Positions 9,120 to 9,779 of a stretch of 64,000 nucleotides of DNA are shown piece after piece. Both the position numbers and the translations under genes were made by a program. The notes under the pieces were generated by a model. It was not told where the DNA came from. It did no database searches and saw nothing but the letters and a program-made list of their open reading frames with translations. Each line of letters opens with the position of its first letter. The first letter of the stretch is position 1. This stretch comes from a virus: the UHGV virus genome UHGV-0211740; one strand, given 5' to 3'.

Positions 9120-9194
9120 ACCAGTAAAAACTTAAATATTTGTATTATAAAGGTATGTATGTTTTATGTCCACACCAGCACAAAGATTACAAAC

Positions 9195-9275
9195 TGTCCG
9201 TGAGACGGACACTACTGTCCGCCACGCGGACACATCTGCCCGTAATACGGACACTAACTGTCCGTGATACGGACA
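9195..9275. repeat. array of four 17-bp palindromes (iteron/operator-like)
   Basis: TGTCCG-N5-CGGACA units at 9195-9211, 9216-9232, 9237-9253 (one mismatch, TGCCCG) and 9259-9275, spaced 21-22 bp centre to centre. Confidence 0.7.
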
Positions 9276-9779
9276 CATAAAGAATATAACTAAAATAACT
9301 AAAGAATAAAAATAAAAAGATCTAGTACTTATTGTACTAAAGTGCATATACTTAACTTATGTAGAATATACTAGATCTAAAGTACTATGTTTTAAATTTA
9401 TTACTTACTGGTATAGTGTCGGCCCTTCATTGGCACTCGCCTATGAGGGGCGAGATGCCGGGCCTCCATAGTGCACACAATAACAGGCGTGCATACGTGC
9501 ATGGCTGTTCACATGTGTGGGAGCGAAGCTATAGCGCAGGCCAAAGGCCGAGCACTAATGTGGACCGCCGACGAAAGCTTGCCAGCGCAGTAAGGAGTCG
9601 GTTGGGAGTCTCCCGCGCGAGTTTGTTTAAAGTTTATGTGTGGAAACTGGCAAGAAGGCCTCTAAATCGCTCTACAGCTGTGTGAACTACACTGGGTAAG
9701 GCAATCACACCAGTTTGATAGAAAAGCTCGTTACAAAGCGATACAGTGAGTTTTTCTATAACCTGAAGAGGAGTCAGCT

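Follow-up and report, generated by a model that had tools for sequence, protein, structure and literature searches.

Within the virus genome UHGV-0211740 we analysed a stretch of 64,000 nucleotides (the window), which contains an array of four palindromes of the form TGTCCG-N5-CGGACA between the gene of a 116-aa winged-helix protein and an AT-rich tract. Together, the array, the AT-rich tract, and the protein probably constitute an iteron-type replication origin with a detached initiator that consists of the N-terminal domain only, a reading to which we assign a probability of roughly 0.6. The original prediction had treated the array as a candidate for either an origin or an operator. The origin is favoured because the nearest solved relatives of the protein are iteron-binding initiator domains, because the same palindrome with the same period forms in-gene arrays in the O-like genes of unrelated phages, because the motif is confined to this locus of the genome and adjoins its most AT-rich tract, and because no sigma-70-like promoter overlaps the array or the AT-rich tract. 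The case for an operator is weakened accordingly.

The window belongs to Vequintavirus, the rV5-like coliphages; for the region 8700-9800 there are matches in 119 phage records, and those among the matches listed are all Vequintavirus. The closest record is OX460980.1 'Aya' with 97.9% identity, and rV5-type genomes are about 90% identical. Whole-genome comparisons are based on the assembled complete genome of this 98%-identical relative (OX460980.1, 136 kb). The array has been annotated as 'repeat_region' in the deposits of some relatives, without interpretation, and most records list the product of the winged-helix gene as a 'putative transcriptional regulator', RefSeq as a 'replication initiation protein'. 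In the rV5 genome paper, a skew analysis for the origin merely tracked the changes in transcription direction, and the origin was not definable (PMC3606486). Full-text literature searches did not yield a paper on iterons in vequintaviruses or a transcript-mapping study of the rV5-like group, and a literature search for the palindrome motif gave no relevant paper.

The palindrome array and the AT-rich tract

The 17-bp palindromes (Table 1) start 21, 21, and 22 bp apart, and the half-sites (TGnCCG) are separated by 11 bp from centre to centre, which is about one helical turn. The four near-identical inverted repeats with a period of 21-22 bp are real and far beyond chance: if up to two mismatches are allowed, the window contains five matches to the motif versus 0.97 expected, and none of 100 shuffles reaches five. 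The fifth match, at 6608, has two mismatches and looks like chance. The array, which begins 76 bp beyond the stop codon of the winged-helix gene, is also the sole report of TRF in the window, where it appears twice in overlapping form, with periods of 21 and 43 and scores of 96 and 112, and no other tandem repeat in the relative's whole genome scores as high. A search for further TGTCCG-N5-CGGACA sites, suggested earlier as a check, found the motif in the relative's complete genome solely at the array, besides one chance match with two mismatches.

An AT-rich tract of about 130 bp had been described after the palindromes, and this is indeed the case. It is the stretch of lowest GC content, at both 100 and 130 bp length, in the window as well as in the relative's whole genome, in which the next-lowest 130-bp stretch has 23.1% GC. 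The short direct repeats assigned to the tract have to be corrected in part: the pair noted, AGATCTAGTA and TACTAGATCT, represents the arms of a perfect inverted repeat, each of which contains one GATC, and AT-rich direct repeats do exist at 9278-9317. The inverted repeat is almost kept in the relatives, the final base of the second arm being C in rV5-type phages.

Table 1. Positions of the features at the palindrome array (numbering of the window)
Feature	Position	Strand	Sequence or basis
Sigma-70-like promoter	8705-8734	+	TTGACA-18-TATATT with TG; promoter scan, 11/12 matches
Gene of the stand-alone winged-helix protein, 116 aa	8769-9119	+	Pfam, PHROG, PDB, AlphaFold2, Foldseek
Palindrome 1	9195-9211		TGTCCGTGAGACGGACA, TGTCCG-TGAGA-CGGACA
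Palindrome 2	9216-9232		TGTCCGCCACGCGGACA, TGTCCG-CCACG-CGGACA
Palindrome 3	9237-9253		TGCCCGTAATACGGACA, TGCCCG-TAATA-CGGACA, one mismatch in the left half
Palindrome 4	9259-9275		TGTCCGTGATACGGACA, TGTCCG-TGATA-CGGACA
AT-rich tract, candidate DNA-unwinding element	9277-9406		18.5% GC, 130 bp
Perfect 10-bp inverted repeat	9318-9378		AGATCTAGTA (9318-9327) and TACTAGATCT (9369-9378), arms 41 bp apart
Invariant GC-rich hairpin, 16 pairs	9421-9464	+	consensus fold of 8 phages, every pair unchanged

Among 14 vequintavirus genomes, 10% of the columns vary by substitution in the array and also 10% in the AT-rich tract, compared to 16% in the winged-helix gene, there mostly at third codon positions, 20-33% in the non-coding flanks, and 70% in the 10-bp junction 9407-9416. 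The difference between array plus AT-rich tract and the flanks has a p-value of about 1e-4. The AT-rich tract is kept in sequence, beyond composition alone, which hints at additional signals. Within the array, variable columns are found in the spacers (4/20) and half-sites (3/48) and are absent from the linkers (0/13). All three half-site substitutions are located at a single base pair, position 3 of TGTCCG, which is already degenerate in site 3, and the degenerate left half of site 3 is identical in 13 of the 13 relatives that keep the site. The substitutions are one-sided: two break a pair of the potential hairpin, one leaves a G-U pair, and none is compensated. Judged from the aligned sequences, this pattern fits a protein site TGnCCG-N5-CGGnCA and argues against a structural hairpin. 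In Escherichia phage V18 (KY683736) an exact 21-bp unit has been deleted across sites 2 and 3 (equivalent to 9224-9244 of the window), so that three sites are left. Sites 2 and 3 have fused into one perfect palindrome, TGTCCG-TCATA-CGGACA, without loss of the phasing. V18 thus represents a natural copy-number variant of the array.

These data also bear on the idea that the four palindromes act as transcribed stem-loops for processing, stability, or attenuation. The array folds well as a single strand (-24.4 kcal/mol, z = -7.9, DNA parameters), one palindrome scores terminator-like on the minus strand in the scan, and the array is probably transcribed because no terminator-like site was found by the scan on the plus strand between the winged-helix gene and the array. 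An RNA element is nevertheless very improbable. Every relative that keeps site 3 has a C-A mismatch in it, the uncompensated half-site substitutions do not spare the pairing, and on the plus strand the palindromes are not followed by a U-tract. In addition, a phasing of two turns and a half-site spacing of 11 bp would be meaningless for RNA hairpins, and the same motif is part of the coding sequence of O-like genes, in all three reading frames (see below).

Directly to the right of the AT-rich tract, a 360-bp stretch (9417-9779) is GC-rich (up to 58%) and non-coding, with an RNA fold z-score of -2.8. It matches no Rfam family and has neither codon periodicity nor an open reading frame (ORF) conserved among 8 phages, so that 'ORF 78' of rV5 is probably spurious, as are the small ORFs annotated in this stretch. 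The stretch may act as a structured leader or as a small RNA, or it may belong to the origin. Its hairpin (Table 1) bounds the AT-rich tract on the right, and it is uncertain whether it belongs to the element; covariation was not detected in the stretch, the relatives being too similar, and rV5 has an 18-bp deletion in the equivalent region. In the Rfam search of the window, only tRNAs reached the gathering threshold and nothing credible appeared at E-values up to 5. A second GC-rich stretch (about 55%) at about 10900-11220, for which no gene is annotated in the relatives, has an RNA fold z-score of -2.6, with 0/100 shuffles folding as well. It has no Rfam match, is unrelated to 9417-9779 besides a 13-base match, and lies upstream of the ORF 11222-11563 and of a tRNA cluster. 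This cluster comprises six tRNA genes at 11660-12468 according to ARAGORN (Arg-TCT, Tyr, Ser-TGA, Thr, Met/Ile2-CAT, and Pro). An extra 97-nt 'tRNA-Lys/OTHER' before tRNA-Thr has been annotated in some relatives, for which ARAGORN made no call in the window. Outside the window, OX460980.1 contains a 15-bp unit in 4.4 copies (ATTGTTAGCTTGTCA) at about 135.9-136.4 kb, with several longer repeats nearby, and a 15-bp unit in three copies at about 124.7 kb, within the second most AT-rich stretch of the genome. Concerning the records of the relatives, 18 entries (MG0656xx) labelled 'Campylobacter phage' (A140, C12, and others) are ordinary vequintaviruses with about 90% identity to the window. One of them that was inspected carries the UNVERIFIED flag, and the host label is probably wrong.

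The winged-helix protein and its relatives in sister genera

The gene just before the array had been described as winged-helix-like, and both Pfam and an AlphaFold2 model (pLDDT 83.6, a single winged helix) support this fold. The protein belongs to PHROG 12838 'replication initiation protein' (E 3.5e-72) and matches weakly also the PHROGs of O-like initiators. In a sequence search of the PDB, 4RO3 was the sole match below E 1e-3 (E 3.9e-5), the alignment spanning the N-terminal strands and the helix-turn-helix. The Foldseek search with the model placed the same structure first (E 2.6e-6, TM 0.66), followed by the N-terminal domains of the staphylococcal RepA proteins (4PQL, 4PT7, and 4PTA) and the iteron complex 5KBJ (E 3e-4 to 9e-3, TM about 0.5), and only then by generic regulators of the MarR, CodY, and DtxR types. 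The best named matches in a viral structure library were a DUF6945 protein, a 'replication protein', and a 'replication initiator protein', and ICP1 ORF88, later named Odn, was found as well. Tandem winged helices as in RepE, pi, and pPS10 RepA are not seen in the model, which has a single one, and the top PDB matches do not include these proteins. According to the model, the 116-aa protein consists of an origin-binding domain that stands alone, with no second domain.

The structure 4RO3 is the N-terminal domain of RepA of PLE, a phage satellite of Vibrio cholerae. RepA binds semi-palindromic iterons in electrophoretic mobility shift assays, and replication from the PLE origin depends on it (PMC7145576). 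Among solved structures, this RepA_N family protein stands nearest to the window protein, in the sequence comparison as well as in the fold comparison. In both systems a non-coding origin, or candidate origin, lies beside the gene of a protein whose N-terminal winged helix binds, or is expected to bind, (semi-)palindromic iterons as a dimer. The PLE protein has a C-terminal domain in addition, whereas the window protein is an N-terminal domain alone. The PLE iterons are described as three repeats with inverted sub-repeats converging on a poly-A tract, in contrast to the four 6-N5-6 palindromes found here, and PLE depends on ICP1 whereas the window is from a virulent phage of 137 kb. The staphylococcal RepA_N initiators of pSK41 and pTZ2162 (4PQL, 4PT7, 4PTA, and 5KBJ), which include an iteron-bound domain, are the next-best matches by fold, but their Pfam family (RepA_N, PF06970) is not matched by the window protein and the TM score is low. 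Their iterons are direct repeats that hold inverted sub-repeats (PMC7145576). The resemblance of the 116-aa protein to RepA_N is structural only, and the same has been reported for PLE RepA (PMC7145576).

By sequence, the family of the 116-aa protein is almost confined to Vequintavirus. A word-indexed homologue search gave five clusters, all of close relatives, and an exhaustive search of 1.8 billion representatives gave seven matches, the distant ones of which were marginal and partly spurious (Ig and RCC1 proteins). A protein-anchored search for related loci in IMG/VR found none. Relatives were reached instead through the DNA motif (see next section) and through synteny of the neighbouring phosphoesterase gene. 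By the latter route we reached Klebsiella phage BIS47 (Mydovirus) and Erwinia phage pEa_SNUABM_55 (pEa55, Henunavirus), and a tblastn search with the BIS47 protein added Escherichia phage 4MG (Seunavirus). The homologues in these members of the same subfamily, the Vequintavirinae, have 105-107 aa, are 29-31% identical over the winged-helix core, and score above the cut-off of DUF6945 (BIS47 28.7 and pEa55 32.2 bits, cut-off 28).

The gene in the sister genera adjoins two direct repeats AGCCTATnCTCAAATTGA with a period of 22 bp, which are located exactly in a divergent intergenic region. Beyond the repeats follow an AT-rich tract, which contains AGATCT in BIS47, 4MG, and pEa55 as it does in the window, a short GC hairpin, and a TTGACA-16-TAGAAT promoter for the opposite genes. 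Read by eye and not computed, shorter GC-rich inverted repeats are found at the place of the hairpin of the window, GAGTCnnnGACTC in BIS47 and 4MG and CGGTGnnnnCACCG in pEa55. The modules differ from that of the window in having two repeats instead of four, which are direct and not palindromic and have another sequence, and in the inverted orientation of the gene, so that the repeats are upstream of it and abut its ribosome-binding site. The AT-rich tracts of the genera show no convincing sequence homology when aligned; the architecture alone is common to them. A different protein together with different repeats in the same order of parts is, at the level of sequence, what would be expected of a cognate module of binder and site. 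PLE RepA and its origin likewise co-vary as a module (PMC8263062).

The same palindrome in other phages and in bacteria

We searched IMG/VR for two adjacent TGTCCG-N5-CGGACA sites and obtained 17 loci, which were sorted by sequence into six groups with 49-70% GC. All 17 are arrays of 3-7 sites with a period of 20-25 bp, and all 17 are located within an ORF whose N-terminus aligns with the winged-helix core. Four of the groups have representatives with matches to PHROGs named 'replication initiation O-like' or 'replication initiation protein', and winged-helix Pfam families are matched above the cut-off by three representatives. In most groups the array is followed, in the direction of the gene, by a segment that is locally richer in AT, for example with 38% GC in genomes of 62-65% GC, and one locus runs on into a RusA gene in a lambdoid context. 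More than half of the loci (9/17) form one group with a 133-aa protein and four sites, in which the mismatch pattern of the sites (0,0,1,0) is the same as in the window. The N-terminal domains of these O-like proteins are matched by a profile of the vequintavirus protein in a profile-profile comparison with 88% probability over 36 columns of the helix-turn-helix.

The O-like arrays and the window thus share identical half-sites, the 17-bp palindrome, the period, and an alignable N-terminal winged helix. They differ in that the O-like arrays are embedded in coding sequence, and the identity of the O-like proteins to the window protein does not exceed about 22%. The palindromes inside the O-like genes are read in all three frames and result in the peptide repeats VR..D, CP..GQ, and S..RT. 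By analogy, these arrays have the layout of lambda, with iterons inside O past the DNA-binding domain and the AT-rich region next to them. In lambda, four dyad-symmetric iterons inside O are bound by dimers of the N-terminal winged-helix domain, the AT-rich unwinding region comes next in the direction of the gene, transcription passes the origin, and the C-terminal domain of O recruits P-DnaB. Iterons are located within the initiator gene in lambda, SPP1, and the RepA_N plasmids, but not in PLE. In the staphylococcal plasmids, they are inside repA, and the initiator has a host-specific C-terminal domain. By its established description, lambda resembles the window in the four dyad-symmetric iterons, the adjoining AT-rich region, and the transcription through the origin, and differs in the sequence of the iterons, in their place inside the gene instead of past its stop codon, and in the C-terminal domain of the initiator.

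In bacterial genomes the paired palindrome was found at 41 loci, compared to about 0.02 expected by chance in 596 Gb. Some of these are O-like genes. Together with the IMG/VR loci, they show in-gene arrays of the identical palindrome in phages and prophages that differ widely in GC content and in host. At seven loci in Burkholderiales, two sites 20 bp apart are located between the gene of a PAS/sigma-54-type regulator and a transporter gene that resembles a periplasmic amino-acid-binding protein. These are presumably enhancer sites, the motif being used there by an unrelated class of regulators. Intergenic arrays of the same palindrome are also present in Myxococcales.

Origin, operator, or another site

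The anatomy of the locus, its uniqueness in the genome and its conservation, the fold of the protein with its relatives, and the return of this layout in other phages are observations; from them we infer that the 116-aa protein binds the array in the stoichiometry of dimers, and that binding leads to unwinding and initiation of replication. Binding of the four palindromes by the adjacent protein, as dimers that are phased on one face of the DNA, is very likely. The product would be made early from a host-type promoter: the promoter of the gene (Table 1), at whose equivalent place a sigma-70-type promoter has been annotated in rV5 (DQ832317), would allow early expression by the host polymerase and read-through of the array. 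Dimers would then occupy each of the four palindromes and, with sites every 21-22 bp or about two turns, would be aligned on one DNA face in a compact nucleoprotein complex. This complex would abut the 130 bp of the genome that melt most readily (9277-9406), and these would open. As a C-terminal effector domain is missing from the protein, another route is needed for the arrival of the replisome. It could be brought in, for example, by phage helicases of the DnaB/gp4-like or PIF1/RecD-like type, aided by read-through transcription. A DnaB/gp4-like helicase and a PIF1/RecD-like helicase are listed in the rV5 paper (PMC3606486). In PLE, RepA-dependent replication needs an SF1B-type helicase, and a remodelling of the origin has been proposed over direct recruitment (PMC7145576). 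By analogy, helicase entry through a PLE-like remodelling of the origin is plausible in the vequintaviruses. A more far-reaching version would be that this virulent myovirus of 137 kb initiates with a minimal winged-helix initiator that remodels the origin, that its own SF1B or gp4-like helicase then enters, and that the transcript of 9417-9779 might serve as a primer or form an R-loop, which would make the site a hybrid of an iteron origin and a transcription-primed origin. We regard this version as doubtful.

The most obvious alternative to an origin is an operator array, at which the winged-helix protein would bind cooperatively to the four sites as a transcription factor and repress, activate, or roadblock. 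Its target would be the read-through into the downstream genes and the tRNA cluster, or a promoter of a type other than sigma-70 in the AT-rich tract. Many deposits name the gene a putative transcriptional regulator, the fold is common to regulators of the MarR, GntR, and CodY types, even though with weaker scores, and the same pair of palindromes apparently provides the enhancer sites in Burkholderiales. In BIS47, 4MG, and pEa55 the repeats are just upstream of the ribosome-binding site, and a leftward sigma-70-like promoter in BIS47 and pEa55 puts them inside the leader of the winged-helix gene, the classic position for autoregulation. The sequence conservation of the AT-rich tract could reflect additional signals, and a minus-strand sigma-70-like candidate is found just left of the array in the window (9172-9144), which the scan did not pick up in rV5. 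However, the motif is present at one locus of the genome, and hence there is no regulon. The sigma-70 scan, which does not cover other promoter types, found no promoter overlapping the array or within the AT-rich tract, and, in rV5, none on either strand from the promoter of the winged-helix gene up to the gene that follows it. The winged-helix gene's promoter is about 460 bp upstream of the array. The array thus resembles multi-operator systems like lambda OR/OL or the operators of MarR and GntR proteins in having several dyad sites next to the gene of a dimeric helix-turn-helix protein, but theirs overlap promoters and are often found at more than one locus. In addition, the nearest solved relatives are origin-binding domains, ahead of the regulators, and the same type of array is found within the initiator genes of phages. 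We therefore consider an operator possible but unlikely.

Another site-specific role is improbable. The array could be a pac site, a site for partition or anchoring, or the target of a protein that, being an N-terminal domain only, blocks or competes at an origin-like site, including that of a satellite or of a rival phage. The protein does not have an effector domain, and the modular N-terminal domain of the RepA type has taken on a role other than initiation in Odn. A pac site is made less likely by the distance of the gene from the likely terminase genes, which is about 7 kb with the tRNA cluster in between, and partition or nuclease functions by the annotation of the relatives' records, in which no ParA/ParB-type or nuclease gene is found within 3 kb on either side of the locus. 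Finally, the site is in the phage's own genome, beside its most meltable DNA and conserved together with it.

Several observations also weigh against a replication origin. The main gap is the missing effector domain, as the 116-aa protein does not have the C-terminal domain that lambda O and the RepA_N initiators use, and no partner for it was identified. The next ORF (9780-10358) was considered as the missing C-terminal half of a split initiator, an idea that was set aside: it has no Pfam family, belongs to a PHROG of unknown function, and its model (pLDDT 52) is not usable. No similarity was seen between this ORF and the gene located after the short initiator in the 133-aa group of IMG/VR, and a 50%-identical relative of it is located in an unrelated context. 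The resemblance of the 116-aa protein to known families in Pfam is modest (HTH_36, PF13730, 25.1 bits with a cut-off of 25; DUF6945, PF22182, 26.8 bits with a cut-off of 28), and RepA_N (PF06970) is not among its matches at E-values up to 0.1. The winged-helix domain is modular and serves also a nuclease, the N-terminal domain of Odn being a copy of the iteron-binding domain of RepA (PMC8263062). The iterons are outside the gene, unlike those of lambda, the RepA_N plasmids, and the IMG/VR loci, and the position of the repeats in the BIS47-type leaders is compatible with autoregulation, too. The difference in variability between half-sites and spacers (3/48 vs 4/20) is not significant (p = 0.18). 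Marks of host origins were not found at the element: in 9100-9799, matches to the DnaA box and the IHF site are solely those with one mismatch, at 9639 and 9708, outside the array and the AT-rich tract, and GATC is not enriched (2 vs 3.3 expected). The genome OX460980.1 has other repeat-rich and AT-rich non-coding regions outside the window, which may be more regulatory regions or a second origin. Lastly, the motif alone is not diagnostic of origins because pairs of the palindrome are found beside sigma-54-type regulators in bacteria. The weight rests on the motif, the protein fold, the phasing, and the AT-rich tract together. In favour of an origin, the array is 1.5 kb from the divergence of the transcription units and from a sign change of the GC skew, and the module of the sister genera is located in the divergent intergenic region itself.

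Iteron origins with a winged-helix initiator are of a well-known kind, and the gene has already been labelled automatically as replication initiation protein. What appears to be new is that this label can be tied in Vequintavirus to a specific and unique iteron array together with an unwinding element. The detached form of an initiator that consists of the N-terminal domain only appears to be new as well, and so does the recurrence of the identical palindrome in the O-like genes of unrelated phages. Origin-binding domains of the RepA_N type are thought to be rare in Gram-negative systems (PMC7145576). Our data suggest that they are common as stand-alone proteins in large virulent enterobacterial phages. 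The rV5-like phages have been isolated widely and are part of cocktails for biocontrol and therapy against E. coli, including O157, and their replication origin has never been located so far. A testable origin with a named binding protein would aid the engineering of these phages, for example through origin plasmids and replication-defective mutants, and a located origin would also aid the interpretation of read-depth profiles.

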